Below are positions 6,474-30,671 of a DNA stretch of 64,000 bases, in pieces (position 1 is the stretch's first letter; every line of letters starts with the position of its first letter). The notes beneath the pieces were generated by a model, which saw only the letters and a list, made by a program, of their open reading frames with translations, was not told the origin of the DNA and did not search any database. Source of the DNA: Elsinoe ampelina (Eukaryota); the NCBI GenBank assembly GCA_010093995.1, contig ML992503.1:1863328-1927327 (forward strand). Direction: 5' to 3'. The position numbers were made by a program, and so were the translations under genes.

Positions 6474-7590
6474 GATATTGGCAAGCTACAAAGAAAATCC
6501 TCTATGTAACTCACCAGGATCAATCGACTTGTATAGTGCTGCAGAGCCATCTCTTGCTCAACAACATGATTGGCCATACGAGCTGCAGCGTTGAACGGCC
6601 GTTGGGAGAGAATTGAAACCGATGTATTTCACGAGGAGAAGTTCTGCGATTGGAAATGCTCATGTCCGAACGTGTTCGCCACCAGTCGTTACTCCAGCCG
6701 TGTGACGAAGTGCGAGATCGAGATACCAAGGTCCTCTGCGGCGACGTGACCTGTCTGGATAGAAGCCTGTAGTGTTGATGGCAGGAATCTTGGTTTCCAT
6801 TCTGCCAGCTCCCCATCCATGGACGAGCTTCAGGATACCTCAGACCTGTGAAGCGGCCTGTTGATATCATCAGAACGGACGGCTTGCTGCCAGCACAGTC
6901 ACACTGGCAATGTCAGCCGAGCGCGTGCTTCTCGATGCGTCTAGAAACGCTTGTTCTCATCAAGAGAAACTGTCAGTTGTGCAAGACCGGTGATGGATTG
7001 TGATGAACCAAAACGGCCCAACGAGGTCGCCGTGGGCGAAAAGCTTGGCGGAAGGGCTTGACCGGCAGCGTCAATTTCATCGCAATCGGTCCTTTTTCCT
7101 TGACAACAACTTGGATTCGTGCATCTGGCAACTCTGATCAATAAGCCCTCCCATCTTTGCATTCGTTCGACCCCGCTTTGGACAGTTTGTAAGCCATGCG
7201 GCACTTCGGCACGCGCTATACCAGTATTACCATGTTATTTCGCTGAATAGTGAAAAGTCCAGCCTGTGTCTGGCGAGCATGTCTCGTCATCTCGACGACA
7301 TGGCACAAGTCGCCGCTACTTCAACTATTCATCCGTCCAATCATCTGTTGCAGAAGCAGCATTGTATTCAAGTAGCCCCTCGTTCATCGGCAGACATCTG
7401 GGGTCGGCATGCAGGTACCGCCATGCTGGAATGACACTGTCGACCTAGGTGGCCTACGGACTGACATCAACACCACCTTTTGTCCGTGAACCCATGCTTT
7501 TGCAAAGAAGCAATACCCCGCTTGATCATCTATAAGTCTGCGAGTACCGTACCGCCCGAGCGCAAGGTAGGTCGTCTACAAGCCTTTGCC

Positions 7591-9386
7591 ATGGCCATCT
7601 TGAGGCCTCTTTTCTTGTCCGTCGCCGCTTTGGCAGGCCTAGTCACTGGTCAAAATACCTCAGAACCCATCGTTGATCTCGGATATGGACAATTCCGCGG
7701 AACAGTGAACAACACCGTCCGCACTACCACCTACTTTGGTCTTCGCTATGCACAGCCTCCAGTGGGGGAGCTGAGATTTCGCGCTCCACGACCAATCGAG
7801 AGGAGCAATTACTACAACGCTGGCAATGTCACCGATGCCACTCGTCTGGGCCCTCAGTGTATTCAAGGTAATCACCGCGCGCGTCCTTGTTGCCACCAGT
7901 CTAACGTTGTGCTAGGCACCCCAGGCTTTAGCCTCAGTAACTCGACGCCCACCATTCAGCCTGGCATTGAAGACTGTTTGCTCCTTGACGTTCTCGTCCC
8001 AAATTCCCCTGTCTCATCGAGCCTGCCTGTGCTCGTTCAAATACATGGAGGAGGATACGCTCTCGGCTCTGCAGAGACATACCCGGGATACGCACTGGTC
8101 AATCAATCTCAAGCCATCATTTACGTCACCATCCAGTACCGACTGAACGCCTTTGGCTTCTTGAGCAGTGTGGAGGTCCGTGAGAACGGGGACGCCAATG
8201 CGGGCCTACTTGACCAACGTGCCGCTCTCAATTGGGTCGAGCGCAACATTCGGGCGTTCGGTGGTGATCCAACCAAGATTACTATCATCGGAGGCAGTGC
8301 GGGAGGCGGCAGTGTAATGAACCAGATGATTCTCTACGGTGGTGACGATAGTCCACCCTTTCGAGCCGCCATCTCCGAGTATCCTTGGTGTAAGTCCTAT
8401 TGAACGACAAAGATGTTCTGCCACTGACTTTCGACAGGGCAGCCATACCACAATGACACAATTCTTGGTGACCAATATCGTCAGGTTTTGACTGCATCCA
8501 ACTGCACAGACCTCAACTGTCTTCGGTCCATCTCCTCTGACGATCTCAATGCAGCCTCGCAAGCAGCGCTGAGAGTAGGCTACACCTCGAATCCCAAGTA
8601 TTACGGCTATGGCGACTTCTACTACGGCCCCGCAGTGGACGGAGATGCCATTCGCGATCTCCCTTCGAACGAGTTCAAGCTCGGTCACTTCACCAAGGTC
8701 CCACTGCTGGTCGACCATGACGGCTACGAAGGTACATTCCATCCCCATCCCACTCTGACCAACCTAACCCTCCCAGGCGTGACCTTTTCCAACCGCTCCG
8801 TCACCAGCGAAGCCGAAGCCGAGATCGATCTGCAATCCCTCTTCCCCTACGCCAAACCCTCCTTCTTCACCCGCCTCTTCGACCTCTACCCCTCCTCCGC
8901 CTTCAACAGCACCTTCTTCCAACGCCAACAACTCTTCGGCGACTTCATCATCAGTACGCCCCCTCCCCTCCCCTCCCCTCCCTCCCTCCCCACTAACCTC
9001 CACCCTCCCCAGACTGCCCAACCTACTACATGTCCACCGCCACCTCGGACCTCTCCATCCCCACCTGGAAACTCACCTTCAACGCGGGCACCCAACTCCA
9101 CGGCGCCACCGTCCCGTTCCTATTCAGCACCAACGCCTCGGCCATCAACAACGCCACGTTGGCGTACATCATGAAGGATTGGTTCACGAGTTTCACGGTG
9201 CACCTCGATCCGAACGCCGAGAGCTGGACGGGGGAGAGGAAGCCGTATTGGCCTCGGTATCAGGAGGTGGTGGATGAGTACAGGGTTATGAGTGTGAATT
9301 ATACGGAGGTGGGAGCGGTGGCGGATGCAGATGCGTCGGCGCAGTGTGATTTTTTCCATGGGCAGAGTTATGTTGTTAGGAATTAA
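7591..9386 (+). CDS. Secreted type-B carboxylesterase/lipase (alpha/beta hydrolase)
   Basis: Signal peptide, motifs EDCLLLDV, IHGGG, GGSAG (nucleophile Ser), DGYEG and LHGA. Introns 7868-7915, 8390-8437, 8732-8776 and 8954-9012 restore the frame. Confidence 0.92.
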
Positions 9387-9982: not shown

Positions 9983-10959
9983 CTAGTGCGGACCTTCGTT
10001 CTCGTTGTCACCACCTGGCGCGGTAGGAGGGATCAAGACACGGTTGATCACGTGAACAACACCAGTCTTGACCAGGACATCGCGCTGAACAACGCGAGAC
10101 CTGTTAATAAAGATGACAGGACCGAGAAGAGTAACGCGGACGTTGGCTCCGTTGACAGTGGGAATGCGTTGACCTGGTCGGAGGATGGTGGAGTAACCGA
10201 CGGTTCCATTCACGACGTGGTAGGTGAGGACGGAGGCGAGAGCATCACCGGTTGGTACCTCAGGAAGAGCGGCAAAGGCCTCGTTGGTTGGAGCGAAGAC
10301 AGTAGCGTCAGGCAAGGTGTTGACGGTGTTGAGGAGGTTGGTAGAGACGAGGGCACCAGCGAGGGTCGTCAGGTTGGCAGCAGTGGCGGTGGTAGCGATG
10401 TCAGCGGGAATGGTGAGGACCTTGTCGATGATGTGGACGATGCCACCGTTGTCGAACTTGACATCCTAAGATGGGTCAGTATAATGTTGCGAGGTAGTCA
10501 GCGAGTTCAACTAACAGCAGTAACAACACGAGACTCGGCACCACCTCCAGAGGTGATGGTGACACGGCGACCAAAGCGCTGAGCCTTGACGACCTGTCCG
10601 CCAGTGACCAGGGAGAAGGAGGTGTTGGTCAAGAGAGTGGGAGCGAAGACACCACGCTTTGGGATTGCCTTGGCTGGAACCCGGGATGGAAGGACGTGGT
10701 ACTGAAGGACAGCCTTGATGGTGTCTGGCTGGTTGCCGAGGTCTGGCTGAGCAGCGAGAAGCTCCGCGAAGGCGTCGTTGGTAGGAGCAAAGACGGTAAT
10801 GTTGGGAGTGGTCGTCAACGCCTGAACAATGTCTGGATAGTTGTCGACTAGGTCCAGCAGAGTGGAGAGGTTGGGTGTGGCCTGGAGTAGCTCGACAATA
10901 GACTGGGCACTGGCGACTGCCGAAAAGGCGAGTGCCGTGACGAAGCTCTTGATCATCAT
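9983..10959 (-). CDS. Secreted fasciclin (two FAS1 domains)
   Basis: Signal peptide; two copies of TVFAPTN.AF...L.YHV...G.VH.I.RVL. Intron 10466-10515. Confidence 0.93.
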
Positions 10960-12429
10960 CTTGGGAGGTGGTGCCTGGATGTGCCTGGTGTTGCAAAGTG
11001 TTTCTGGCGGTGCAGGGCGGAAGGTCGTAGGTCATGCGTTGCCTCTTATACACAAAGTATTGCTGTGCCTCCGCAACGGGTTCCTCATTTGGCCCCTGTC
11101 AATCGCCATGATGCTGTGCAGTCGACAACCCTCATGGTCATTCCGCATTCAGCCATTTGTCAACAAAATATGGCGCTCCTGCAATCTGTCGATATTGCAG
11201 ACGCCGGAAGCGCAGTGATGGTGGTACATGATGATCGTGGAGGCAGATCGAGCACTGTTGTCTCTTGCCCTACCGAGGATGGCTCGAGATTAAGATGGGA
11301 AGATCCTTACCGTGTAATAAACACATGGCGTTCTTGTGGAACCTTACGGACCGACTTCCGGGCAAACCTGTGCTCTGTGCTGGGATCGATCGTGGTTGTC
11401 ATGAACGCATGTCGTGACTGTATGACAAGTCTCTACTCGAGCATGCTAGTAACCCGAGGCAGCCTGGTTGGGCGAATGACCGCAAACAGATGGCATTTAG
11501 CATTGTGTAGAATCCAATTGATCCTCGGGTCGAAGCAACATGTCGTCTGTCCTGCAGGAAGGCGTGGCTTGTCGTGCTGGGGTGACGTAGAGTAAGTGAC
11601 CAACCAGGAAGTCGACAAGAAGTCGCTCATTGGCGATGGGTAGATTGAAAGTGATTGCTGATCTCATTTCAGGGTCTTGGTAATGGGTTCATGTCCAGGA
11701 ACGGATGATGGGGAACAAGGTTGTCCAGGCTTAGCCATGCCCTATCCTGAATGGCACCGAGGAATGGGCCGTGACCCCGTCATTTCGTGTCTGCTCTGTC
11801 GACAGACTCTGAATGCTGACAATTGATGAAGAACGAGTCATGGCGATTATAGTCATGACATCTAAACGAGTGTTTGTCGCGCAGAAAAGATCGATCGAGG
11901 TCGACGTAAAGGACCCTTTGCCGCGCTCCCACCAGACGTCGTTAATCGGATCAGCTTGTGAGAACAGCCGCAAAGAACGTGTTCATTTCCCCGCTGAATT
12001 CTCTGCTGGCGTCCTGCAATAATGACAGCGGGGTTGTCTGCAAGGCACAGCCATCGTTCGGATGATCTCTTTGACGACATGCGAGGATGACGATGGAAGC
12101 ACGGCGAACGCGAACCGTCTGTAGATTGGCCAATTCGATTTGACGTTGACGCTCTCTCTTTACGTAAAAGATGGACACGATGGAGACTGCAACCCACGTG
12201 GTCTCGCATTCAAAGAGACTCTGATGAAATGACACTAGGTTGGGTATTGAATGGCTCGCCATGCATGCCCAGCCGAAGCATGCTTCGCCAGTCTGATGCT
12301 GACTTGCATCTTGCCAAAGTCATGCAACGCGCAAAAGCAAAACCTGATCGCAGCAGGTCGTACACCCATCACGCAATGTAACAATCTCGGTGTCTGCTTT
12401 ACACTGTCCAGTGATCAGGTCCGATTGGC

Positions 12430-13623
12430 TCACGTGTCGATGAACTGGACCTTGACAGCTCTGGCGGAGGGGTTGGATGCTGCCTCGAATGCATCCTGCG
12501 CCTGCTCTAGCCCAAATCGATGCGTGACAAGCGGCTTGACATTGATCAATCCTTCCGACACGAGCTGGATTGCTCTCGGATATGTCTCATGATACCGAAA
12601 TTGGAATCGAATATCAATCTCCCGGAACGATGCATGCATGAAAGGATACTCTTGGAAGCTCTTACTACCAACACCAATGATGAAGACTGCACCTCCAAAG
12701 CGGGTCGACTATTCATTTTTAGCGATGTTCCAATCGATGGACTTTGAAACAACGAACGTAGATGGCAGTATGGATACTGCTTTCGACACCAGTGCATTCA
12801 AGGACCAACTTGGCCTCTTGACCAAGCTTTTCCTTGATGGCTTCGGAGAGGTCTTTGGATGACTGGCCCTTCTGCACTTGTAAAGTCCGCACTCGGGGCA
12901 CCAGCTGCTTCGCCATCTGTAGGCGATTGTCGTCAAGGTCGGTGATGACAATTGGCGATGCTCCAGCGGCATGGGCAGCAAGCAATGTGACCATGCCGAT
13001 AGGACCTGCACCACAGATGACCAAAGGATCTCCCAACCTCAGATCAGACCTCTCGATACCAGCCAAAGCGACTGACAGTGGTTCCAGCAATGCTCCCTCT
13101 TCGCAGCTCATGCTGTCTGGCAGGCGATGCAGCCACGCCTCTGGGTGAGCGTGGTATCTTCGAAGGGTTCCATCAATGGGTGGAGATGAATAGAAGGTCA
13201 TTTGTGGACAGGCATTGTATCGTCCTGTTCGACATGCTGAGCACTCTGGTTTAGAGCATGGGACACCCGCTTCGATGGCGACCTTGTCACCTGCCTTGTC
13301 AGCGTCAACATCAAGAAAGGTGGATACCTAGATCCTTCCTTACCTATCTTCAACGTCGTCACCTTTTGACCAATCTTCACCACGACACCAGCACTTTCAT
13401 GTCCCAGTCCGCACTCCTTGGTGATGACCGAGTCGCCAATATTGCCGTGCTTCCAAAAATGAACGTCGCTGCCGCAGATGCCCGTAGCTTGGACGTGAAC
13501 TAAGCAATCATTGGGTCCGATGTCGGGCACCTCAGCTTCGAGCACCTTGATTTCATGCTCCGGATTCGTTGCTACAGCCAAGTTGATGGGCTTGCGAGTG
13601 AGGACTTCTGTGCATGAAGACAT
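12430..13623 (-). CDS. Zn-dependent polyol dehydrogenase, L-arabinitol 4-dehydrogenase/galactitol dehydrogenase (LadB-like) family
   Basis: Motifs TGICGSDVHFW, GHESAG, GAGPIG, FQFRYHETYPRAI. Introns 13291-13343 and 12709-12757. Confidence 0.9.
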
Positions 13624-13730
13624 GATTGAGCTGACTGCATCCAACGACGTTGTTGCAAGACTGTTTTATCCTTCCTGCTGCCTGCAGTCTGACGGTTGGA
13701 CTTCTGCTTGCTGAGCACTCTGCCCCTCCT

Positions 13731-13749
13731 TCGGTGCGGGGTCGTCCGA
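13731..13749. promoter_or_regulatory. Gal4-type site CGG-N11-CCG overlapping a CreA-type GCGGGG, in the divergent LAD/Ldh2 promoter
   Basis: TCGG-TGCGGGGTCGT-CCGA: CGG at 13732-13734 and CCG at 13746-13748. Confidence 0.55.
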
Positions 13750-14034
13750 TGCACACATCTCGCATCCTGCTCACACTGTTACCAACAACACCGCATCATC
13801 CTTAGTCAGATGTGAGAAGTTTCATCACCTCCCAAGGCTGCAATCGGTCCTTCCTATGTGGCATTGAATCCGGTACAGGCCTGCTTCCATGACCTGAGCG
13901 GCATCGCATTTCGGCGTTTGGCCGAAGCCTTCGGCGTTCGTCCGTCTTCGGGTCACATTTTCTCGAGCCAATTGATGAAGGGCATCAAAACCACTTGCCT
14001 CAACATCAATTGACATTCAGCACTTCAATCCACC

Positions 14035-15114
14035 ATGTCTGAACAACCACAACGAATCGGCACCATCCTGCCCGCCGACGCCAAGCAATTCGCCACCGAC
14101 ATCCTCACCGGCAACGGCCTCTCCCCGACCGACGCCTCCACCGTCGCCTCGTGCCTCATCGCCGCCGACCTCCGCGGCGTCGACACCCACGGCATCAACC
14201 GGCTCCCGTCCTACATGACACGAGTCCGCAAAGGCCTCAACTCCCCCACCGCCCAACCCGTCCTGACCCAAATCACGCCCGCCGTCGCCCTCGTGGACGC
14301 CAACAACGCCTTCGGCTTCATCGGCGCCAAACTCGGCATGGCCCGCGCCATCGAAATGGCACAGACGTTCGGCATCGGCATGGTCTCGATCAAACACTCG
14401 AACCACTTCGGCATGTCGGCGTGGCTGGTGCAGCAGGCCATCGACGCGGACATGATGAGTCTCGTGTTCACGAACTCGTCGCCCGCGTTGCCCGTGTGGG
14501 GAGGGAGGAGTAAACTCATGGGCGTGAGTCCCATCGCGTGCGGAGCGCCTGGCGAGCATCCGTTCATCCTGGATATGGCGCCGTCGGTGGCGGCGAGGGG
14601 CAAGATCTACAAGGCCAAGAGGCGCGGGGAGAAGATTCCTTTGGATTGGGCGCTGGATGGGGAGGGGAGGCAGACGGATGATCCGGGGAAGGCGTTGGAG
14701 GGGGTGATGCTGCCGATGGGTGGGCCGAAGGGGTCGGGGTTGGCGGTCATGATGGATGTGTTTTCTGGGGTGTTGTCCGGGTCGGCGTTCGCGGGGGGTG
14801 TGACGGGCCCGTATGACTTTTCGAAACCGGCGGATGTGGGGCATTTTCTTGTGGCGATCAAGCCGGATTTGTTCATGTCGATGGCGGAGTTTAAGGAGAG
14901 GATGGAGGAGTTGTATGGGAAGGTGGTGGGGTCGGAGAAGATGCAGGGCGTGGATAGGATTTACTTCCCGGGGGAGATTGAGCAGTTGACGCAGAAGAAG
15001 AGGGAGGTGGAGGGGATTCCATTCGTGGAGGCGGAGATTGAGGCGCTGAATGAGGAGGCGAGAGCGGTGGGGGTGCCGGAGCTGAAGGTCAAGTCGTGGG
15101 AGACGAAGGCGTGA
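14035..15114 (+). CDS. Malate/L-lactate dehydrogenase type 2 (Ldh2/AllD/YiaK) family oxidoreductase
   Basis: Intronless 359 aa; motifs ADLRGVDTHG, SNHFG, LDMA.S, GGPKGSGLA, YFPGE. Confidence 0.92.
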   Translation: MSEQPQRIGTILPADAKQFATDILTGNGLSPTDASTVASCLIAADLRGVDTHGINRLPSYMTRVRKGLNSPTAQPVLTQITPAVALVDANNAFGFIGAKLGMARAIEMAQTFGIGMVSIKHSNHFGMSAWLVQQAIDADMMSLVFTNSSPALPVWGGRSKLMGVSPIACGAPGEHPFILDMAPSVAARGKIYKAKRRGEKIPLDWALDGEGRQTDDPGKALEGVMLPMGGPKGSGLAVMMDVFSGVLSGSAFAGGVTGPYDFSKPADVGHFLVAIKPDLFMSMAEFKERMEELYGKVVGSEKMQGVDRIYFPGEIEQLTQKKREVEGIPFVEAEIEALNEEARAVGVPELKVKSWETKA

Positions 15115-15220
15115 GATCTCTTGTGAGTATCTGTATCAAATACTCATATCTACATACTAGGTGGATGATATCATGGCCTTTTGATGTGCCACTTTACTCT
15201 CTGTGCTTGCACCAATCCCG

Positions 15221-15760
15221 CTAGAACACTGTCGCTCCTCCATCCACTACCAGATCCGCTCCATTGATGTACGATCCCGCAGTACTACACAACATGACAA
15301 CGGGTCCCGCCACTTCCCACGGTTGCGCCATCCTACCCATCGGATTCCTCCCTGCCCAAATATCTCTACATCTCTGTAGTCCCTCTCCGGCGTTCAGAAT
15401 CGTGTCGGCATATCCCGGCGACACGGAATTGACTCTGATCCCATGCACCGCCCACTCGGCCGCAAGACAATGTACGAGATGAATCACTGCTGCTTTACTC
15501 ACGTTGTAAGCTGCTTGAGGCTGTGGATAATTCACTCGATGTCCGGACATGCTGGCTACGAGGACGATACTACCACCTGACCCGTGGGATTTGATGTGTC
15601 GTGCAACAGCTTGTGAGGCATTGAAGGCGCCAGACGTGTTTACGGAGAGTACGCGAGACCATTCTTCCGCGGATACATCCATGGCAGGGACGCAGGAGAC
15701 CACACCAGCGAAGTGGGCAAGGTGGCGGATCGGGCCAAGTAGTTGGAGGAAAGTGCGGCC
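15221..15760 (-). pseudogene. 5'-truncated short-chain dehydrogenase (D-arabinitol 2-dehydrogenase-like)
   Basis: Has FAGVV, ASMSG, YNVSK and VDGG. The frame hits TAA at ~15800 with no ATG and no TGxxxGIG Rossmann motif, and no upstream exon was found. Confidence 0.65.
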
Positions 15761-15837
15761 AGCACGAATTAAAACGCATCTTCTGGTGAAGAAGAAAGAT
15801 TAACAAAACATCTCACATCCACCCAGAACCATCCACC

Positions 15838-16215
15838 ATGGTGCCACCCATCACAGATCTCGAATTCTTGAAAGGTCTCTGGCTCGAAGCTCACGCAACG
15901 ACCCAATCCAAGCGAGCTGCGATTAGGCACGCAACACGCATCAGCAACGAGATGGCAAGCAGAATGTCCGTCGCTACCTCATCCACTCAAGATCATTCCG
16001 ACAAAGCCTTTGAGGAGAATAAAAAGGAGATCGCAAAGCTCAGGAGCGAGCTTGACGCTGCTGAAGCATGGGAGGCACAACTCAAGAAGGATGTCGAAAG
16101 TGGGTATCCAGTGGCTTCAAGGTTGGACAGACTGACACATCGCAGGTATGGGTGGTACTGTCGGTTGAGGTCTTGGAGCTACGGCTCACACAGAAGCATG
16201 AGAGTGGAGTGGTGA
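15838..16215 (+). CDS. Small hypothetical coiled-coil protein (possible intron 16100-16145, giving a stop at ~16168)
   Basis: Good Kozak context (CCACCATGG), helical charged sequence, CTGAC...CAG branch/acceptor. No family recognised. Confidence 0.4.
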   Translation: MVPPITDLEFLKGLWLEAHATTQSKRAAIRHATRISNEMASRMSVATSSTQDHSDKAFEENKKEIAKLRSELDAAEAWEAQLKKDVESGYPVASRLDRLTHRRYGWYCRLRSWSYGSHRSMRVEW

Positions 16216-16421
16216 TAGAGGAGAGATCAGAGCAAGAATTGTAGGGGCCAAGGAGAGAGCAGATCAGTATGCATACAGAGAATACAATATCGACCTGATC
16301 TATGGTTGTCATTTGTGCATAACGTGATTCCAACTTCAAGGCAAGCTGTACCCTTTCGCGCATACTTGTCGGTCTTTCAATTGTCCAGCTCTGAATCGCT
16401 TGTTGTTTTCAACTGGCAGAG

Positions 16422-17174
16422 TTAGCCGTGTCTCGTGTCCCTGATGGCTGCTGAACCGCTCTTACGCATCACTATAAACGTCCAATGCCACTTCACCGTC
16501 AGGACATCTTCCAATACGATTGGCGGCCGGCGTAAGAGGAATGGAAACTCCATTTTCAGCCACAATGCGCGAAACGACTCATCTTGGGTTCTAGACAGAT
16601 CGCCCATGATACGTAGTTCAGCCTGTGATCTGGCAGATTCCTCGCTCTGCCCAGGTTGGATTGTTCCAATACCTCTCAACATGTCGATGTATTTCGGAAT
16701 GTGAGTTGCTATTCTTTCCTTAGTTGGCAGGCGAAAGACGATACAAAGGTCGCTAAGATGTCTCCCGAAATCGATTTTCCGGAACAATGCTTCAAGGTTA
16801 TCTACAGTGTCGAAGTCAATTGGGATATCAACGATCAGACTTCTTAAAGTCCTTGCTGATATCCCAGGTAGGAAGCGTAGAAGCGCAGCGGCATAAGGCT
16901 CCACTAAGCATGGTATGTCCGGGAGAGTGATGACGATTTCAACCGATCCGTAGAAGATGGCAAGTGCTTCACTATATGTTGTCTTGCAAGTCTTAACAAG
17001 CGACCACATGTATGGATCCTGCTTATTAGGTCCGCGGAGACGCCAGACTTGCTGGTTCGGCTCGGAAGGACTTTGAGCCAGGTGGAGGCTGTACTCGAAG
17101 CGCTGCAGCTTGGCCATATGTCGATAGATGGACATTCGGATCTCTGGCGGGGCGGCCAGGAGAGGGAATGCCAT
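16422..17174 (-). CDS. Hypothetical protein with N-terminal F-box-like motif
   Basis: 250-aa ORF with 'PLLAAPPEIRMSIY' and 'LVKTCKTTYSEALAIFY'. Confidence 0.65.
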   Translation of the reverse strand: MAFPLLAAPPEIRMSIYRHMAKLQRFEYSLHLAQSPSEPNQQVWRLRGPNKQDPYMWSLVKTCKTTYSEALAIFYGSVEIVITLPDIPCLVEPYAAALLRFLPGISARTLRSLIVDIPIDFDTVDNLEALFRKIDFGRHLSDLCIVFRLPTKERIATHIPKYIDMLRGIGTIQPGQSEESARSQAELRIMGDLSRTQDESFRALWLKMEFPFLLRRPPIVLEDVLTVKWHWTFIVMRKSGSAAIRDTRHG

Positions 17175-17423
17175 GTTGTGTCGTGAGTGAATGCGGAAAA
17201 TGGAGTAAGGACCAGAATGAGAAAGGGAATTGAACAGCTCAATGATAAGAACGTGTCAGAAGGATGTGAGTCTTACCAAAACCTTGAATTTTTTAGATGC
17301 TTAATGGTGTTCTTTTTCACAACATAGTATACCTACAGTAAAACCAAAAGCTGATCCAACACCAGCTCGACGTCCAACATCACACTTCATGTCATACAGC
17401 CTACTTAGCTCAAGCGATTTTGC

Positions 17424-19601
17424 ATGGCCGGTGCTGCGAGCCAGCATGTTGCCACAAAGGCCTGTACGGAATGCCAAAAGCGCAAAACCCGATGCATCGT
17501 GATCAACAATGGACAGCCATGTCGATATTGCGCCCGCGCAGGCAAAACATGCACAGTCTCTGTACCACCGGTAAGGACGCCTTTGACAAGGAAGAACCTG
17601 GAAGCTGTCGAAGCTCGATGTGCGCGACTGGCGCGACTAGTGCACTCACTCAATCCTACGATCAACATTGAAGAAGCTATAGCGAAAGACGACATCGCTT
17701 CCGACACGATCCAGAGCATTGGGGTGAGCACCGAGGGCGAGTCACCAACGGCTGATCGAGCAGATGGGTGGCGGGAGCCAAATTTCGAACATGTCGGGGA
17801 CTCTGATGGTATGGCATCTTTGCCACAAGCCAACAATGGAAGAGCATTTCTCGGTCAGTGAGCCACCAAGGCTTCGGCTTCACTACTAATGCTGTTCAGG
17901 AAGTAGCTCGGGGTCATTCCTGTACCAGCGAGCAACCCAGCTTGCAGGTATCCAAGCAGCGTCTACATCGAGCATTACCGGACGTCGTGACACGAGAGAG
18001 CAATTGAGCTTGTCACGTGCATCTCAGATGTTCCCACTACCACTAGCAGAGCAGCGTCTGACCGCAAGCTTCCGATCGGCGTACCTGGTAGACGTATACT
18101 TCGTATGCTACAACGTACCATGTCCCATTCTGCATGAACCGACGTTCCGGCAAGGTCTATCGAGACGAGCAGGAATTAAGCAGGACGAGTGGTTCCCCCT
18201 TCAATACCAGCTGGTTCTCGCCATGGGCTACTGGATCATAGGTGGAGACGAGGGGCTCCAAGTGTCTTTCTATCAAGCCGCTCGAGCACAGCTGTCCCTG
18301 GAGTGTTTCGAATCGGGCTCTCTGAGTCTTGTACAGGCACTGCTACTCATGGTATGCCAATCTCCCACATTGCGACCATCATATCTGACCTAAATAGGGC
18401 AACTACCTACAGAAACGCGATCGTCCCAATACTGGATACAATTACGTTGGATTAGCAGGACGTATGGCAATCGGGCTGGGACTGCATCGAAGGCCTACTG
18501 ATGGTGGGACATATTCGAACATGCAGCTTGAGATCAGACGAAGAATATTCTGGACGCTCTTCTCCTTGGAGAGCGGCTTTGCCCTGACCACCGGTAGACC
18601 TACTTTGGTGGAAGAGACTGTGACCGATCTCTCACTTCCTTCGAACATCGATGACGAGGTATGCTGAACTGCTCCTTTGCACCCCATCAAGCTGATCGGT
18701 ATAGGATCCGTCGTCTGTGGATATTCGAAATCGACCGACCTCTTGCTCTGCGATCATAGCCCAGAGTCAGCTTGCTATCATCGCCAATCGGCTTCACAAG
18801 GATATCATCAATGGCAAATCCGCACTATTAGACCTGCACGCCTGCAAGAAATCCGTCCATGAATCCTTCATCGTCTGGAAAGCACAACTTCCTAGATATT
18901 TCTTCGACGCGGGAGTCCCGGACTGGTTCCGTGGACCGCGAGCTATGGTCTTGTGGAAGGAGCAAAACCTAAGAATGATATTCTGGAGAGCATGCAGACG
19001 AAGCAATTGTGGCTACGTCAGTAGTGAAGAAGCTGCTCTCCGAGCGTCCGAGACGGCGATAGAGTCCATTCGAGATGTCTCAGAGTTTCACAACACCAAT
19101 TCTACTCTTCTCAATCAGAACATCGCATGGTATTCAACTTACTTCATCTTCCAGAGCGCTCTAGTCATTATCCTTGGCCACTTGGAAGCTCTTCGCACCA
19201 GCAGACCGGCTACAGAAACAACCAGGCAAAATCAGGACATGCTTGAGCTTGCTCGGAACTCCTTGAGAGCGCTGTCTACCTGGACGCCAGCGGCGAAGAG
19301 ATGTCGATTCGTGCTGGAGACATTGGCGAGAGCAGTAACGACTACTGTACCTAACACGTCCGCGACTGATGGGCCTTCTAATGACGTTCAGATGGAACAG
19401 GTTTCTGGGTTTTCTTTCCCCAGCCAGACGCCGGGCGATACTGCGACCAACGACTTCCTCTCGCAGATGGGGATTACCGGCAACGACACCATGCCGGATC
19501 AATTCGATACTTCCTTTGATGTCTTATTCCAGCAGATGCAGAACTTTGAAGGCGATTGGACACAGGACTTCAGCGACCTAGGATTCAATGATTTCTCCTG
19601 A
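17424..19601 (+). CDS. Gal4-like Zn(II)2Cys6 transcription factor with fungal-specific TF domain (GalX-like candidate)
   Basis: CTECQKRKTRC...CRYCARAGKTC followed by RTPLTRKNL (Gal4 has RSPLTRAHL); GNYLQKRDRPNTGYN; RRRIFW. Introns 17854-17899, 18352-18397, 18659-18704. Confidence 0.92.
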
Positions 19602-19632
19602 TACGCCAGGACAAAGAATATCTCACTCGATT

Positions 19633-20457
19633 CTAAGGCAACACATAGCCACCATCCACCAGCACATCACTCCCGGTGGTGTAACTACTCGCATCACTCG
19701 CCAAATACAAATACACCCCCTTGATCTCCTTGACATCACCCTGCCTCCCCAACGGCGTCATCCTATACGCCTCATTCCTCACCCTCTCCGCCGCCCCCAT
19801 CTTCGTGTCAAAAAACCCGGGACTCACCACATTCACCCTGGCAAACCCCCTCCACTCCCGCGCCAGGCTCTTCCCGAGATGCGTCACGTACGCTTTCGTG
19901 GCGTTGTACACGGGCTGATCCACCGGCACATTGACGATATGCGCGGAGATGCTGCTCGTGATGATCAGATTGCCGCTGCCCTGGCGCTTGAACACGGCGC
20001 CTGCGTATTTCGCGCAGTAGAAGACCCCGTCGACGTTGACTGCCATTTGGGCGCGGTACTCGTCGAGGGTCTGTTCGAGGATGGGTTTGCTGATGGCTGT
20101 GCCGGCGTTGGCGATGAAGACGTCGAGACGGCCAAAGTCGGAGGCGATGGTTTCGATGGTGGCTTCGACGGCGGACGGGTCGGTGACTTGGAGCTTGTAG
20201 GCTTTTGCGGTGATGTTGTGGGTGCTGGCCAGGGAGGTGGCGTGCTCGATGGCCGCGGCGTTGGAATTGTAGATCAGGGCCACGTGTGCGCCGGCTTCGG
20301 CCATGGCTTCGGCGACGGCGAGCCCGATGCCGTCTGCTGCGCCGGTGATGGCGACGACGCGCGAGCGCATGGAGAGTTGGGAGAGGACGTTGGTTGGGGT
20401 GGAGGGGGTGGGGAGGGGTTGGCGCGGGGCCTGGGCGTCGGCGAGGGACATGGACAT
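19633..20457 (-). CDS. Short-chain dehydrogenase/reductase, L-xylulose/sorbose reductase (mannitol dehydrogenase-like) family
   Basis: Motifs TGAADGIG, IANAG, YNATK, VSPGFFDT, VDGGY. Intronless. Confidence 0.92.
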   Translation of the reverse strand: MSMSLADAQAPRQPLPTPSTPTNVLSQLSMRSRVVAITGAADGIGLAVAEAMAEAGAHVALIYNSNAAAIEHATSLASTHNITAKAYKLQVTDPSAVEATIETIASDFGRLDVFIANAGTAISKPILEQTLDEYRAQMAVNVDGVFYCAKYAGAVFKRQGSGNLIITSSISAHIVNVPVDQPVYNATKAYVTHLGKSLAREWRGFARVNVVSPGFFDTKMGAAERVRNEAYRMTPLGRQGDVKEIKGVYLYLASDASSYTTGSDVLVDGGYVLP

Positions 20458-20591
20458 GTTGGGCGGCTTGATGGGATTAGGATTGGTTGGTAGTGGAGTT
20501 GGAGAATTGTAGAGATGGTATTATCACCTGCAAGGATTGGGGATATATTGTGTATTGATATGGGCAACTGCTTGGGAAATTTCAATAGCCG

Positions 20592-20633
20592 GCGGGGGCG
20601 GGGCAGAGATGGCGTCGGTCGAGTGTGCTCCGA
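20592..20633. promoter_or_regulatory. SDR promoter: tandem CreA-type GCGGGG sites plus a Gal4-type CGG-N11-CCG site
   Basis: GCGGGG at 20592 and 20598; TCGG-TCGAGTGTGCT-CCGA with CGG at 20616-20618 and CCG at 20630-20632. Confidence 0.55.
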
Positions 20634-21360
20634 TTGCGCCCAAGTGGAGTAGTCGTGGCGGCATGATGTATACCACGTCGTCATCAATTTTTTCTGGTGT
20701 AAAGAACGACAAAATCCAACAAACCCGCCATTCATATCATTTGTGGCGTGTCAGAACGACTGCTGCAAGCTCTGGGCATAAATGGGTCTTCACAGACGGC
20801 GGACCATGGAATATCGTATACCTTGACTGAAGAAACGCAGTGCTTGTCAGAAGTTATGCAATTGGCCGTCAATGACCAGTCAAAGCATACGACATGCTCC
20901 TATGGACATGTGTTGCCATAGGTGGGCATAGGTACATGACGATAACGAGGGACCTCTTGCAGGGCCAGAAGGAGAGCTGTCATGGCGGGTCAAGAGCAAG
21001 AAGAAATTGCTGGGACTCTGCTGTTAACACACCGCTATTGATTGATGATGGAGTGCTTTTGTCCGTCAAGCGTATGTACATCTCGTGTGCTTGAAGGTTA
21101 CCCTCAAGCCTCGAATCCTTACCGAACGTAACAAGCTGGAACCCGCTCGCATTCGCTCCGGGTAAAGTCGTTGCCGACCAGCGGGCGAGAATCCCTCGTA
21201 TACGGGTGGCAAAGACCTGAGGACCTTGAGACGGCAACGGCGAGGGTCACAGTACATTTGATATCGTGTGTGTAGGCGGCAATGGGACACGCGTGCTTGG
21301 ACCTCCTTATGAGCACATTCTCGTGAGACGTACATGTAAGTCCGATGTCTAGCAGGGAGC

Positions 21361-21840
21361 TCATAGACTCTTCCTGGTCCTTGCACGACTCGTGAGCCCT
21401 ACATCAAGGAGAAAGCATATCCTTGTCAATGCGCCCACATAGACAAACCCTAGGTTACCCCAGTAAATGGCGTTCCACTCCCAGAATCGCCAGTAGGTCT
21501 GGAGGCCCATTGAATTGACACTGTAGAGATGACCAAAGTCGGCGATGAGCAAGCCGAGGAGAAAGACCCTCCAGACGTTCCGGTCGGACGTGGCGCGGAG
21601 GACCAAGGCCTCGTTGAGGGCAAATACAAGATACATGTTGGCGAGCTGTGTCAGAACTATACTCTCCACCTTTGAAGGTCCGAGGAGAGTAGGACTCAGT
21701 GACGGAACGGTCATGGCGAGATAGTCCTTCTGGCCAAAGTGGGCGTAGTAGGCACCTACAGCCGTTGCAACGGGTTCGATGTATAGGAAGAACAGGCGGT
21801 AGAGGAGCGGTAGACGGGATGACGTTGATGCAGGAGCCAT
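21361..21840 (-). CDS. Conserved fungal small integral membrane protein (~4 TM)
   Basis: Motifs YRLFFLYIEP, QLANMY, LLIADFGHL, WGNLG; hydrophobic segments. Confidence 0.8.
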   Translation of the reverse strand: MAPASTSSRLPLLYRLFFLYIEPVATAVGAYYAHFGQKDYLAMTVPSLSPTLLGPSKVESIVLTQLANMYLVFALNEALVLRATSDRNVWRVFLLGLLIADFGHLYSVNSMGLQTYWRFWEWNAIYWGNLGFVYVGALTRICFLLDVGLTSRARTRKSL

Positions 21841-22199
21841 AATGGTTGATGATTGGCGATATTTCCAGCCGCGTCTTTGTGAGAGATTGGTCCTCGAATA
21901 GATGCAACAAGTCGGGTCGCAGCCTGGTGAGCGGAGATTGTGGCGCGCGTGCAAGAGTCTGACGGAGAGGAAAATGACGGCCTCAGCTGAACCGGGAAAT
22001 GGTGTACGACGACAAATAGACTCTTCCGGGCGTTGGGGAACAAAGGTGAGACTGCGTTGCGGCTTGTGTCAGACGGCGGGTGGGGACGTCGTGGTGGGCA
22101 GATGGTGAGTAAGATGGACGATAATCTGGCTGACACGAAGCTTGTGTCGGAATTTGATGAAAGGCCGAGATGAATTGTCTATGAGCAGGGCTGAGGCGG

Positions 22200-22231: not shown

Positions 22232-23678
22232 TAGCTGAAGGGAGATGAGATTGTGCGTGAACCGGTGACACGAATTTACGGAATATTGGACAATGACGAG
22301 ATGACGAGATGCCTCCTTTCCTGCGTGTGACCTTTGTGAGGGCAGAAAGTTGGTTCGGCGCGGAAGGAACCAAAGAAAGGCAAACACCAAGCGCGCCGAG
22401 TTTATCTCGACAATTGCGTTCTCGGGCAGAGTATCAGAGGATACAGACTCGCCAAAAGCAAGGCCGTCTTCGCGTGGAATCTGGGGAAACACTGTACTTG
22501 TGGATGGCAAACTTCGTGATGCTGCACTTTCGGAGTCTCCGGACTGTGCATGCCCAAAAGAGTGTTTGTTGGTGCTGATGCTACATGGAACAGTACAGTG
22601 CTTCTAGGCGAGGCAGTCCCTGCAAAATCTCTTTACAAGGAAGAGCAGCATTGCCGTTGGGATCAAGGGTGCTGTACGATGGCAGCAAGTGTCACGCGAA
22701 TAGTAGTAAAACCCTCCTGAACAATTCCTTCCTCTGCCATCGTCAGCGACAGCGCATCAGTGCATCCAGAGTACAGTCAAGGAAGCCCCTTTGACGAGCC
22801 TCTACGCCCAAAAAAGCAACAAGCTTTTGTGTATTGCCGGGCTGGAATCGCTTCTTCGTTCTGGCTACTCCTCTCTTGCACAGAAGCGCACTTCTTTGGT
22901 TCCACTGTTCCACTCCCCTCCTGCTCTCGCACCCTCGCCGCCGACTCTGGCTCGCCCTCTGGCTGTGCCAATCTCAATCTCGACTCTCCCCTTACTCGAC
23001 CTCCCACACGCAGTACGCTCCCAAATGCAGGAGCATAACACGGCCATCGGCTCCCTGCCCGTCCAGTAACGCAAAGAAGGCCCTTCCGCCCTCGCTGTCG
23101 CAGCTGCAGCCGTTGGACCGTCGTTGCTCTCGTCGTTAGACTCCCGCCCGCCAGCATTCCACTTCCATCACAACCGTATCCCATCCGTCGCCCGTCTCGT
23201 CTCGTCTCGTCTCGACTCTTTCCTCTTCCCTCCACGACCTCGTCATTCGTCCACTGACACCGGCCCCTACTGGACAAACTACTGGTCCCACGCCGTTCGA
23301 CTTTACCCAGCAGCCAACCCCATCTCAGTATCCACCTGCGACATTGACACCAGACATTGCAACGACTACATAGGCTTTCCATACCCGCCATCCGCTCCCT
23401 CCGCCCCGAGTCCAGAGTCCTTTTGACCGGCCCATTCTCTCATCTGGATCATCCTTTTCTCTCATCCACCTTCAATCTCAAGCCCAACTCCGAAACACCC
23501 ACACTCCTTTTGGGAACTTGGAATGTCGACCGCTCTCTACACTCTCTGCTAATACAATCAGTCAATCCTTGGCTGCTTCCATCATCGTCCCTCGACACTC
23601 GTTGCCCATTAGCCCCTGTCCTTTCGTCATTACAGCAATTAGCAGCATCACACGACATACCTAATCATCCTACGCACC

Positions 23679-25997
23679 ATGCAGTCGACAAACTTCAACC
23701 TCCACAGCACTTACAAACCCGTCGAATCATTCAGTGGCCCGTCAACGACAAGACCGATTGATATTCCCTCCAAGCGTCCTTCATCGAGGCACGAGTTTCC
23801 CCCGACCGTCCCTTCCCAGCCGGCCGACAAACTCGTCAACAGAAAGAGACGGGACAACGTACATTTTAGGGACGTGCAGTGGGGTTCCAAGCAGCAAGAA
23901 ATCGCTGAACGGGAACAGTTGGCTCTCTCATACGGGCGTGTGGGATCGCCTGCTCGATCCAATTCGTCCAGCAGCAAGAAACGGGAGGGCAAGGAGACTG
24001 GCATCTTCAGGAGGACTTCCGTCTCGTGCAAGAACAAGTTCCAAAAGGCTATCGCTGGAAGAAGCCGGAGGTCCTCAGCCGATCACATGGAGGGTGTCGA
24101 AGAGACTACTTATCCCGAGGCCAGCTCATTCTATCAGACACAGTCTCGTGGCACCTTCATGGACCGCATCACCCACCCCAAGGGCATGTTGTCCAACCTC
24201 AAGGTCTCTAGGTATGACACACCACAACCTATCCACGGCGCCTCGGCATCGAGTGCTGCACGCCTCTTCTCCCAACGACCTGTATCCGCACAATTCTATG
24301 AGTCTCAACTACCTACAATCAGTCAACACTACGATTCGAGGGGAGGATACGCTGCTCGCAAGGCCGCAGCAGCTGCTAGAGACGGCATGCGTTCAGGCCT
24401 GCCACCTTCTCCACCCTCGCCCTTCAACTACCTCGAAACACGCGAGCAGAACCGACGAAGACTCGGGAGCAATTCCAGTGCAGCCGACAGCGGCGCTGAC
24501 ATCTGCTCAAGTTCCGACATTGACATGATCGACCTGCCCGAACAATTCGTGGCCAAGCGTGATCCCATGTCCCACCTCCCCCTCGAACTGAACGCCCTCA
24601 TCTTCTCGCATCTCGACGCTGCCAGTCTCCGTTCTTGTCAAAAGATTGGTCCCTGGAGAAATCTGGCTTCGGATCCTCTCGTCTGGCGTGGAGAGTACCT
24701 CCGAAATTTTAACAAGGAGAACTACGTCTCTCCGGCTCCTATCCAGATCGGTGGTGTCGGAATCGGCATGCCAGGCCAGCAGTTGCAGAACTGGGAGCTG
24801 ATGCACAGCGCAAGAGAACAGATCAACACAAACTGGGCTAATGCCAAGGGCCGCGCCATCTACATGGCCGGCCACACTGACAGTGTCTACTGCGTTCAGT
24901 TTGACGAGCAGAAGATCATCACTGGTTCTAGGGACAGGACCATCCGTGTCTGGGATCTCAACACCCACCGCTGCATCAAAGTCATTGGTGGACCTACAGT
25001 CCGCCCGACACCTGGTCCTCGTGTCCTTCGCACCGTCGATTATCCTTCATTCCACCACGCAGAGGCCAGCGTCAACGGTACTGCATACGGTCACAACATC
25101 TACCACGTGCCGTCTGACTTCCACTCCGCTTCCATTCTGTGCCTTCAGTACGACGAGGAGATTCTCGTGACTGGATCCAGCGATAATGATTTGATCGTCT
25201 GGGATGTCAAGACATACGAGCCCATCCAGAGGCTGAAGCACCACCAGGGAGGTGTTCTCGATGTCGCTTTTGACGCCAAGCACATCGTCTCCTGCTCCAA
25301 GGATTGCACCATTGTCGTTTGGGACCGCAAGACTCTCAAGCCCCTCCGCACACTCACTGGACACAATGGCCCTGTCAACGCCGTCCAGCTCCGTGGCAAC
25401 CTCCTCGTCTCTGCTTCTGGCGATGGTGTCGCTCGTCTCTGGGATCTTAACAAGATGGAGTGCGTCCGCGAGTTCCCGGCAAAGGAACGCGGTCTTGCGG
25501 CTGTCGAGTTCAGTGATGACGCCAAGTACGTCCTCGCTGGTGGTAACGATCACGTCACCTACAAGTTCGAGGTTGCAACTGGCAAAGAGGTCCTTCAATA
25601 CTCTGGCCATACTCAGCTCGTCCGTTCCCTCTTCCTCGATACCCAGAACAGGCGTGTCGTGTCTGGATCCTACGATCTGGATCTTCGCGTCTACGACTAC
25701 GACACTGGTGCCACCATCGCCGTCTTTGCCGAGTGGACCACGAGCTGGATGTTGGCCGCTAAGTGCGACTACCGCCGTATCGTGAGCACCAGCCAGGACG
25801 GACGTATCTTGCTGATTGATTTTGGTATTAACCAAGACGGTCAGAAGGTCGAAGGAGTGGACCTTTTGGGGGGCTGCGAGCCCTGGGTCCATGAGGAGCT
25901 GTAAGTTACTCAATCTTCTGGCTGACATGAGCATGAACTGACAAGTAACAGTGATCGTCTCTACCCAAGCTTCAACTCCAGCGTCCCCAAGAATTAG
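23679..25997 (+). CDS. F-box/WD40 protein (beta-TrCP/FWD-1-like SCF substrate receptor); unspliced form ends at 25904
   Basis: F-box DPMSHLPLELNALIFSHLD; WD repeats (GHTDSVYCVQFD, TGSRDRTIRVWD, GHNGPVNAVQ). Probable terminal intron 25901-25951. Confidence 0.9.
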
Positions 25998-27605: not shown

Positions 27606-29062
27606 CTACTCGAGAGTCCACTGTCCGTCCTTCTCGACGATCTTGACACTCCTCTTCTCGTCCAAACTCACCCTGCCAGCGTGCAGGATGGCCCCCGTAG
27701 CAATCGTGTTTTTCAACGTCGGCAGGCCCCTCTTGTCCAGCTCATCCAGCGACACGACACCGTCCTTGAGATCCGTCACGGCGTCGACGAACTTTTCAAA
27801 CGACACGTAGCCGTAGCCCGACTGGCCGGCAAAGTTGCCGCGCTCGTCAGGGGCGTACTTCATGTAGAAGCTAGAAGCAAACGTCAGCCGAAGCCCACGG
27901 CATATCGTGAGCAAAGAGAGAAGAAGAAGGGTGAACACTCACGGATTGAACCAGGCAATCCCCTCCCCGTCGACCGTAACATCATACCCCCTCTTCGCCT
28001 GATCAACACGCACCTCGCCCCCGTCGGCCAAGTAATGAAAGTACTGATTACTATGCACGCCCGCCTTCTTCGGCGCCGTCCAACTCGCGGTGTAAACCCC
28101 CGTGGCCCGCCTCCCGCTCCCGTCCTTCTTCTCCCAGTCCACCAGCAAGGCAATCGTGTCCTCGGTGCCGGGGTCGCACCCCAGCCCGCTCGCCACCCCC
28201 GTGCTCCCGCTCGCCGTCACCTTGATCGGCCTGTAGTTGGGCACCATGCTCTCGCAGATGTCGACGTGGTGCGAGTTGAGGTAGTACGAGATGTCGCTCT
28301 CCTTGCCGGCCCACGCCTTGAACGTCTCGAGCTGGTTCTTGGGCTGCGACATGTAGCTGTAGAAGTAGTTGAAGTCGCCCAGTTGGTGGAGGGCTTTGTG
28401 GCGGGCGTCGGCGTAGGCCGGGTCGAAGCGCTTGTGGTGCTCGATGTAGACGAAGACGTTGTTGGCGCGGGCTTTGTTCAGGAGGTCTTGGTGTTCGGAG
28501 AGGAGTTTGACGGCGGGCTTGGTGATCATTACGTGGATTTTGCGCTCGATGGCGTAGAGAGCGATGGGGTAGTGGGTTGGGTCCGGGGTGAAGATGGTGA
28601 TGGCGTCGCCGGGGGAGAGGGCGTCGATGGCGGTCTTGTAGGCCGAGGGGTCGCGTTGGTCGTTGGGTGGGAAGGAGTCGAAGGAGGTGTCGAGGCCGTT
28701 GTAGGCTTCGGTGATGTTCTTTTGGAGGTGCTCCCCTGGATGGGGTTAGTGGGTGGGCTTCAGAGGATAGCTCGGGGTACGAAGGGTGTCTCTCCTGAGC
28801 ATGCTGAAGAGCCAATGCCACGGCAGAGCTAGGAAACTTGCGATACAGGACAGAAGGAAGAACGAGTGCACTCACTGATTGCAGGAAACTTGTTGCCAGT
28901 GGTTCCCACCATGGACAGCTTTCCAACCTTGCCTCGTCGTCGAAGATCAAACAGAGTCAATCCGACAACACCGACCTTCTTGTCTGACCCGGAAGCTCCA
29001 CCTCCAACGAATCCGGTCGTGTACTCTCCAGTACCGACCATCAACACGTTCAATGGCGCCAT
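27606..29062 (-). CDS. gaaA: D-galacturonate reductase (Gfo/Idh/MocA family)
   Basis: N-terminus [12 protein letters not shown]...[21 protein letters not shown], plus EHHKRFDP. Introns 28736-28875 and 27871-27942. Divergent from gaaC. Confidence 0.9.
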
Positions 29063-29699
29063 ACTTGCGGTTTCTGTGGTATTTCTTGTGCGGGTGGTAT
29101 AGCAAAAGTTGAGGCGGGGTAGATGGAGGGGCAGGGATCAAAAAGATGGATACTCGAGCGGACGTCAACACCGCTCCTTTTCAACAATTGTCTCTTGAGC
29201 TGAACAAGTATGTCGCAAATTGAAAGGCGTCTCGCACCAGCCGTCGCCCGGCGAGTGAATTGTAAATTCTTCCGCCGTGGCACGCGCATTTCCATCGTTT
29301 CATACCCCGACGCGACAAGTCTTTGTGGGGAGGGCTATTGCCGGCCCACATGGCGGAGGTCTCTTGCGGCGTTTCTGGGCCCTGATTGGTGCGAAAATAG
29401 CCCGGCACCTTTTCTCCTCGAGAGCTGTTTGCCCGCAAAGGGAAATCTGTTTGGCACGATTGAAGCAATCTCACAGAAATGTCCGCCGGACTAAAAGACG
29501 GCGAGACATGGCAGGGTGACGAGGGTTGTGGAATCTCGGAAAAGTCGATATAGAAAAGCCAGGAGCCGTCTCGAGCACTGTCCATTTCCTGCTCTTTTGA
29601 TTCTTTTGCTCTTATACCCCTCCACCCCACCTTCATACCAAAATTGACCCATCATCGACTTCACCACTTCACCGACACCACCACAACACCACCACCACC
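29063..29699. promoter_or_regulatory. Bidirectional gaaA-gaaC promoter
   Basis: 637 bp between head-to-head ATGs. This arrangement is known from other ascomycetes. Confidence 0.8.
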
Positions 29700-30671
29700 A
29701 TGTCTACCAACGGCTCCACCAAGTCCCGCACCCCTCTCCGGGCCGGCATCTACGCTCCCACCATGACCTTCTTCGACCGCACCACCGAAGACCTCGACAT
29801 CCCAACCATCAAAAAACACGCCGTCTTCCTCGCCAAAGCCGGCCTCGTAGGCCTCGTCACCATGGGCTCCAACGGCGAAGCCGTGCACCTCTCCCGGGAA
29901 GAAAAGGCCCAAGTCACGCGGGCCACGCGCGAGGCCCTCGACGAAGCAGGCTTCTCCTCGGTCCCCGTCATCGCGGGAGCAAGCGACATGTCCGTCCGGG
30001 GCACGCTGCAGAACATCACCGACGCGGCCGGGGCCGGGGCGGAGTACGTCTTGCTTTTGTCGCCGAGTTACTACCGGTACGCGATGAATGATGGGGCCTT
30101 GTACGAGTACTTCACTTCCGTGGCGGACAAGAGTCCTCTCCCGATTATCCTGTACAATTACCCTGGTGCTGTCGCCGGCATTGATCTGGATTCGGACCTC
30201 ATGATCAAGTTGGCCGGGAACAAGAATATCATTGGTGCAAAGTTCACGTGTGGTAACACGGGCAAGCTGTCGAGGGTGGCGCAGGAGTTGGAGGCGGCGA
30301 ACGCGAAGGGGACTGGGGCGGGCGAGTGGATGGCGTTTGGAGGTTTCGCGGACTTCACGATGCAGTGTGCTGCGTCGGGGGCGAGTGGAATCATCGCGGG
30401 TGGTGCCAATGTTTGGCCGAAGATGTGTGTCAAGGTGTGGGAGTTGTGGAAGGCGGGCAAGGTTGAGGAAGCGATCAAGTTGAATGAGGTCCTCACCAAG
30501 GCGGATTGGATCTTGACGAGAACAGCTATTCCAGGTACAAAGGCGGCGATTGAGATTGCGTATGGCTATGGCGGTGTGCCGAGGAGGCCGTTGCAGCCAC
30601 TCAGCTCGGAGAAGCACAAGGAGTTGGAAGGATTGGTCAAGGAGTACCTCAAGACGGAACAGAGCTTGTAG
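29700..30671 (+). CDS. gaaC: 2-keto-3-deoxy-L-galactonate (L-threo-3-deoxy-hexulosonate) aldolase, DHDPS family
   Basis: Motifs GIYAPTMTFF, MGSNGEA, LYNYPGAVAGID, GAKFTCGNTGKL. Confidence 0.92.
   Translation: MSTNGSTKSRTPLRAGIYAPTMTFFDRTTEDLDIPTIKKHAVFLAKAGLVGLVTMGSNGEAVHLSREEKAQVTRATREALDEAGFSSVPVIAGASDMSVRGTLQNITDAAGAGAEYVLLLSPSYYRYAMNDGALYEYFTSVADKSPLPIILYNYPGAVAGIDLDSDLMIKLAGNKNIIGAKFTCGNTGKLSRVAQELEAANAKGTGAGEWMAFGGFADFTMQCAASGASGIIAGGANVWPKMCVKVWELWKAGKVEEAIKLNEVLTKADWILTRTAIPGTKAAIEIAYGYGGVPRRPLQPLSSEKHKELEGLVKEYLKTEQSL

Follow-up and report, generated by a model that had tools for sequence, protein, structure and literature searches.

A putative polyol catabolic gene cluster with a Gal4-family regulator and Gal4-type sites in Elsinoe ampelina

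Gene content and linkage of the cluster

A 64,000-nucleotide stretch of the Elsinoe ampelina genome (contig ML992503.1, positions 1,863,328–1,927,327; referred to here as the window) includes five clustered genes coding for a zinc dehydrogenase of the medium-chain dehydrogenase/reductase (MDR) type, an Ldh2-family oxidoreductase, two short-chain dehydrogenase/reductase (SDR) proteins, and a Zn2Cys6 transcription factor of the Gal4 family, with operator-like sites composed of inverted CGG half-sites (CGG-N11-CCG) in both catabolic promoters, as the first-pass annotation had proposed. The catabolic cluster is real, and probably encodes a small pathway that can be switched on for a sugar alcohol or sugar acid, distinct from the known galactitol (GalX) cluster of Aspergillus. 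The reading we favor, with a probability of about 0.4, is that of a lineage-restricted, inducible catabolic cluster with a Gal4-type operator that would carry out a redox rearrangement of a sorbitol- or iditol-type substrate; its regulatory half, in which the factor binds the N11 sites and induces the enzyme genes, we consider quite probable.

All five frames match Pfam families. The dehydrogenase gene (12430–13623) is transcribed leftwards and codes for a 363-residue protein with ADH_N and ADH_zinc_N matches; its two introns (13291–13343 and 12709–12757) are both spliced in contigs of run X5. A 411 bp divergent promoter separates it from the rightwards-transcribed, intronless Ldh2 gene (14035–15114), which codes for a 359-residue NAD(P)H 2-hydroxy/2-oxo-acid oxidoreductase (Pfam Ldh_2, 417 bits). 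The leftwards-transcribed SDR1 (15221–15763) follows, and then, beyond an inserted segment, the rightwards-transcribed regulator gene (17424–19601; 679 residues), with introns at 17854–17899, 18352–18397, and 18659–18704, and the leftwards-transcribed SDR2 (19633–20457), an intact 274-residue short-chain reductase (PDB matches 4O0L, 3CTM, and 3GDF) represented by RNA-type contigs in X4 and X5. Gene models are derived from intron signals, a named 679-residue homologue, and the spliced contigs over both dehydrogenase introns; none of the runs behind the spliced RNA-type contigs is registered as RNA. The nearest named relatives of the cluster proteins are Elsinoë proteins.

The dehydrogenase, Ldh2, SDR1, factor, and SDR2 genes are in the same order on one 32 kb contig of a relative, organism C. 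Partner genes are unlinked in Aspergillus. The cluster is seemingly limited to part of the genus, since the E. fawcettii dehydrogenase and Ldh2 are on contig sequence of the same length and the best match to the factor is on another contig, and Ldh2 has other contexts elsewhere; it is probably restricted to Elsinoë. The E. batatas locus tags (000009, 000699, and 000964) are widely spaced on one contig and are unusable as positions.

SDR1 is a 5'-truncated remnant in which the YxxxK motif is kept, the Pfam match begins at model position 69–70, and the N-terminus is short by about 85 residues, among them the glycine motif for the cofactor; as judged by eye, none of the 58 frames of at least 20 residues between 15740 and 17430 provides a glycine-motif exon. 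Organisms C and D align with the SDR1 region only as far as 15738–15740, and the organism D contig continues beyond 15738 with 127 letters absent from the window. Among the pieces listed for X4 and X5 there is no long one from SDR1, to which we attach no weight. Adjoining SDR1 is the inserted segment (15764–17290), with two open reading frames (ORFs; 15835–16215 rightwards and approximately 16413–17174 leftwards) that match no Pfam family and each have one intron spliced in RNA-type contigs. The segment has a 72% identical copy at G000:C8:753296–754778, and in organism C 1,605 nt of the window are replaced by 913 different letters. The insertion appears to have removed the SDR1 start together with most of what lay upstream of the factor gene, and SDR1 is likely intact in organism C. 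Thus, of the self-contained five-gene set within 8 kb described in the first-pass annotation, the frames and their linkage in organism C stand, but the cluster is not intact here because one SDR is broken, and a duplicated segment of 1.5 kb has been inserted. The two orphan ORFs of the segment are convergent, the best-kept stretch between the copies is their non-coding junction (approximately 16240–16360), and organism C has part of the segment on another contig.

The regulator and its candidate operator sites

In the Gal4 family, the linker and coil determine the half-site spacing. The window factor has both the Zn2Cys6 cluster (PF00172) and the middle homology region (PF04082), and the segment after the sixth cysteine gives an ungapped alignment with Gal4 (3COQ) and Lac9 (1CLD), with R-x-P-L-T-R starting 7 residues past that cysteine as in Gal4, in agreement with the linker likeness noted at first pass. 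The likeness extends to a lysine at the Gal4 K18 position and to full-length homology, and the best 150 matches of an exhaustive search include Gal4 proteins of the yeast type, matched over their full lengths. The factor differs from the yeast-type members in having about 30% identity to them, a Cys2–Cys3 loop two residues longer, predicted non-Leloir targets, a gene located inside the cluster, and no match to Gal4_dimer (PF03902) at E 0.001; this domain is found in 9 of 17 long yeast Gal4-like proteins scanned and on 27% of the members of the nearest Atlas cluster. Among 180 regulator homologues, a redundant set that contains the window protein's own model, 77 have a complete cluster, and the linker motif is offset by 7 residues in 40 of these and by 6 in 16, with the exact motif absent in the other 21. 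The window factor is the only protein with a Gal4-type linker found in its genome; a weak second linker match was discarded, as it is not a transcription factor. The offset-6 proteins (P0391, P0392, P0394, P0400, P0413, and others) form a second Gal4-like group that may therefore read another spacing, and the Aspergillus regulator GalX could belong to it.

Both predicted TCGG-N11-CCGA sites are present. Site 1 (13731–13749) lies in the divergent promoter, 108 bp from the start codon of the dehydrogenase (LAD) gene and 286 bp from that of Ldh2, and on the reverse strand it matches exactly the strict yeast Gal4 consensus, CGGRnnRCYnYnCnCCG (PMC1698483). Site 2 (20615–20633) lies 158 bp upstream of the SDR2 ATG; it has two mismatches to the strict consensus and is absent from the genome list of one-mismatch matches. 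The exact fit of site 1, which was spotted by eye before testing with a pattern that itself comes from yeast, is what exceeds chance: about 0.002 such matches are expected, by hand arithmetic, in the approximately 1.45 kb of non-coding DNA in the cluster, and the 28.3 Mb genome has 39 exact matches, including site 1 (control, 42). The window contains four copies of the TCGG-N11-CCGA form where 1.4 are expected, a count reached in 6 of 100 shuffles, and the genome contains 451. Both sites share the T and A flanks and the half-site CGGASSAC, and they are 2 of the 37 genome-wide matches to a pattern drawn from the sites themselves. In organism C the alignment runs through site 2 and ends at 20634, one base beyond it, which suggests that the right half of this site is kept there.

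Two patterns were discarded. The one drawn from the sites, CGGASSAC-N6-CCG, is not an enriched motif (37 genome-wide, 61 in the control), with no other matches in the paralogue loci examined. GCGGGG hexamers of the CreA type, cited at first pass as accompanying the sites, are indeed located within site 1 (13736–13741) and, as two tandem copies on the forward strand (20592–20603), beside site 2, but they are uninformative, with SYGGRG at chance density (24 occurrences over a locus of 4,077 bp, where 21.8 are expected). A plain CGG-N11-CCG also lies about 290 bp upstream of another zinc dehydrogenase gene (L094:918–934; G000:C4, near 498570) that pairs with a divergent SDR gene (C4:497561–498085); it may be coincidental or may mark a second target.

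Several observations weigh against an operator-controlled cluster. Plain CGG-N11-CCG is at chance level in the window (21 against 17.7 expected), and two of the four TCGG-N11-CCGA matches are in coding DNA, at 20309 and 21539. The organism C alignment halts inside site 1 at 13736, where 99 nt are replaced by 55, and site 1 may be lost in that organism. Plain sites are found within about 300 bp in one of four paralogous MDR promoters and in 3 of 46 non-redundant Ldh2 promoters elsewhere, and a LAD gene is near Ldh2 in none of 80 metagenome loci (the best 80 of 154, partly redundant, 37 of them with at least 2 kb upstream). The cluster has no transporter or kinase, a neutral-polyol route leaves Ldh2 without an obvious role, the factor is apart from the dehydrogenase and Ldh2 in E. 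fawcettii, and the orthology calls are composed of best matches, linkage, and residue patterns. One account of these genes, which we think rather unlikely, is that they are a loose neighborhood of two independent pairs, dehydrogenase/Ldh2 and factor/SDR2, linked in one lineage, with N11 sites that are either chance matches or belong to a factor with other targets. The chance counts of the plain motif and its lack of enrichment in Ldh2 promoters are as expected from such an account, as are the unlinked partners in Aspergillus, the unlinked factor in E. fawcettii, and the loss here of SDR1 and of most of the factor's upstream DNA. It is opposed by site 1, which fits the strict consensus exactly and is located between the divergent genes at 3.7 kb from the one factor with a Gal4 linker found in the genome, and by organism C, in which the five genes are collinear and the alignment ends one base past site 2.

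The enzymes and the likely substrate

The dehydrogenase is the sole LadB-group match among 11 in a genome search, and the genome has separate genes that we take, from their motifs, to be LadA-, LadC-, and XdhA-like. Its best PDB match is Neurospora crassa LAD (3M6I), and it is 64% identical to LadB and about 50% to LadA; the 64% value is that of its E. batatas orthologue against A. brasiliensis ASPBRDRAFT_207387, catalogued as LadB (PMC6231085 supplement 3). It shares the catalytic and structural zinc ligands with LadA, LadB, LadC, and the sorbitol dehydrogenases (SDH), and has an NAD+-type Asp, but it differs in the pocket, where S65, S129, A297/F299/R300, and F308 include serines in place of M70 and T121 (human SDH numbering), A-S-F-R in place of L/M-S-A/S-K/N, and phenylalanine in place of Y318. 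Positions 65 and 308 correspond to LadA M70 and Y318, and F308 is as in sorbitol dehydrogenase; a LadA Y318F change lowers the Km for sorbitol about five-fold (PMC2731777), and the serine at 129 corresponds to T113S in the L-idonate dehydrogenases of plants (PMC4404067).

In an alignment of 19 sequences, S65, S129, A297/F299, and F308 are common to eight, three of them from Elsinoë, and in nine sequences of the LadB type positions 65, 129, and 308 are M, T, and Y; the altered residues are common to Dothideomycetidae relatives. Both types coexist in Hortaea and are encoded in one strain of Zasmidium cellare, ATCC 36951, so they are paralogues. The window enzyme thus belongs to the LadB group by similarity, yet falls in a separate subgroup beside LadB proper. 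The four changed pocket positions look sorbitol- or idonate-like, galactitol is therefore not the default substrate, and the changes point weakly to a sorbitol-, iditol-, or sorbose-type compound over galactitol. For the E. batatas orthologue, an AlphaFold model was set aside because its pLDDT is below 50 in the pocket loops.

The locus was first described as a GalX-like galactitol/polyol cluster. The A. niger genes galX (An16g01640, PMC5468973 supplement 2; or NRRL3_07290, PMC8961234), xhrA (NRRL3_07289), and ladB (NRRL3_07283) are near neighbors (PMC6231085). The GalX-like description is not supported by the regulator. A word-limited search with its last exon gave 29 matches, among which the sole A. 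niger cluster is CAL00361.1 on contig An11c0140 (36% over 678 columns); because this best match is on An11 and GalX is on An16, the regulator is probably not GalX, nor an orthologue of An16g01640/AN10543, a distinction drawn from gene location and linkage and not from comparison with the GalX sequence. The factor homologue and LadB are on different contigs in A. brasiliensis (4.54 and 2.03 Mb), as are the homologue and a LadB-type protein in A. steynii (4.51 and 6.28 Mb), and in A. flavus the tag of the factor homologue is thousands of genes away from Ldh2. GalX may still belong to this family, at a greater distance; it is 20% identical to Gal4, and a 2017 review lists its site as unknown (PMC5468973).

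There is nonetheless a resemblance to galX-xhrA-ladB, in that a Zn2Cys6 regulator has a LadB-group dehydrogenase and an SDR as its linked partners, with a similar redox-rearrangement logic. A galactitol pathway of this kind, in which galactitol is oxidized, SDR2 reduces L-xylo-3-hexulose or L-sorbose to sorbitol, and galactose or galactitol triggers the Gal4-family factor in the manner of yeast Gal4, is in our view unlikely. It gains from the LadB-group standing of the enzyme, from the clustering of the A. niger genes, and from the L-sorbose-reducing enzyme of A. nidulans, which is given as unconfirmed in PMC9151342. It loses from the An11 location of the regulator match, from a pocket unlike LadB at four positions in a paralogue that coexists with LadB types in single genomes, and from the presence of Ldh2, which has no place in the Aspergillus galactitol pathway; the cluster also differs from the A. 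niger genes in lacking an aldo-keto reductase like NRRL3_07282.

Ldh2 has a single match in the genome and scores under every NCBIfam equivalog cut-off. Fungal Ldh2 is widespread and conserved, and no function for it was found in the literature surveyed. Among the 80 metagenome loci, Ldh2 is accompanied by a sugar transporter in 20, an IlvD/Edd dehydratase in 10, and a distant Zn2Cys6 factor (22–34%) in seven. An N11 footprint in the Ldh2 promoters of other fungi was sought and abandoned, as there is no signal, spacings of 7 and 8 are commonest, and the gene contexts differ. At L002, L003, L005, L008, L009, L041, L043, L073, L079, and L080, Ldh2 lies directly downstream of the IlvD/Edd dehydratase, and a Zn2Cys6 factor is often present as well; these look like an undescribed fungal sugar-acid cluster.

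A sugar-acid pathway at the window locus strikes us as improbable. Here the substrate of Ldh2 would be an (S)-2-hydroxy aldonate, for example L-gulonate, oxidized to its 2-keto acid; the zinc enzyme would be an L-idonate 5-dehydrogenase, and an SDR would reduce 5-keto-D-gluconate. The Ldh2 family does include 3-dehydro-L-gulonate 2-dehydrogenase, although the window protein is below that cut-off, and Ldh2 relatives adjoin IlvD/Edd dehydratases. The step from L-gulonate to 2-keto-L-gulonate, which belongs to fungal D-glucuronate catabolism, is given without an assigned enzyme for A. niger in PMC4870679, and GluF is an SDR (PMC5814732). The A. niger gluD-gluE pair of the D-glucuronate pathway is likewise a divergent pairing of hydroxyacid and zinc alcohol dehydrogenase genes with a shared promoter of about 0.4 kb, for which the available text reports no linked regulator or SDR (PMC5306355). 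GluD, however, is a D-isomer-specific 2-hydroxyacid dehydrogenase where the window has Ldh2, and no GluC/GluD-type enzyme is present in the cluster among the frames scanned with Pfam. Of the plant L-idonate dehydrogenase changes, S129 is shared but Y42H and A112G are absent, and a single serine is weak evidence. The cluster enzymes are set beside GluE and GluF by description, and SDR2 is closest to the fungal mannitol-dehydrogenase/Sou/carbonyl-reductase group, its Atlas neighbor being a 'putative sorbitol utilization protein SOU2'.

The predicted pathway and its implications

In the polyol pathway that we favor, the factor would use its Gal4-type linker and its coil to dimerize and would bind inverted CGG half-sites 11 bp apart, with site 1 serving the divergent dehydrogenase/Ldh2 pair and site 2 serving SDR2. 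The NAD+ zinc dehydrogenase would oxidize a polyol to a ketose, SDR2, probably NADPH-dependent and formerly acting with SDR1, would reduce a ketose to a polyol usable by central metabolism, and Ldh2 would handle an acid step or a side product. The regulator would be a separate Gal4-family member in a cluster assembled apart from the Aspergillus galX cluster, with the insertion having destroyed SDR1 in this genome. The substrate may be a sorbitol- or iditol-type polyol, galactitol, or an aldonate.

The flanking genes are ordinary, coding for a carboxylesterase (7465–9386), a fasciclin protein (9983–11031), a DUF7704 protein (21361–21900), a WD40 protein (23643–25904), and a GH3 glycosidase (37579–39696). 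At 27939–30671, 7.5 kb from the cluster, are divergent genes for a Gfo/Idh/MocA reductase and a DHDPS-family aldolase, which we presume to resemble the gaaA/gaaC D-galacturonate pair; GaaA also converts glucuronate to L-gulonate. Fused gene models elsewhere (P0003, P0076, and P0246) show which genes come ahead of the homologues: for the factor, a PRK-type kinase in Venturia inaequalis and an SDR in A. versicolor, and for the dehydrogenase, a polysaccharide deacetylase in Friedmanniomyces.

The literature surveyed, which does not extend to the original GalX, LadB, and XhrA papers, contains nothing on this cluster, an Elsinoë Gal4-type regulator, or a GalX site. The layout is no surprise, as fungi commonly have sugar-catabolic clusters that include a regulator gene; this kind of design is known, and the members and likely substrate are new. 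A bolder proposal, to which we give little credence, is that a mold relative of Gal4 reads the 17-mer of the yeast upstream activating sequence (UAS) and has been recruited to a non-Leloir pathway pairing the LadB sister enzyme with Ldh2 in a new aldonate/polyol route, possibly including the L-gulonate 2-dehydrogenase step that lacks an assigned enzyme in fungal glucuronate catabolism. The favored reading offers an operator prediction for an uncharacterized Gal4-family factor with homologues across Aspergillus, Penicillium, Venturia, and Clonostachys, and ties the LadB sister enzyme and a conserved fungal Ldh2 to one testable pathway. If the predicted binding is true, the Gal4 protein–DNA code would have persisted in molds while its targets changed.

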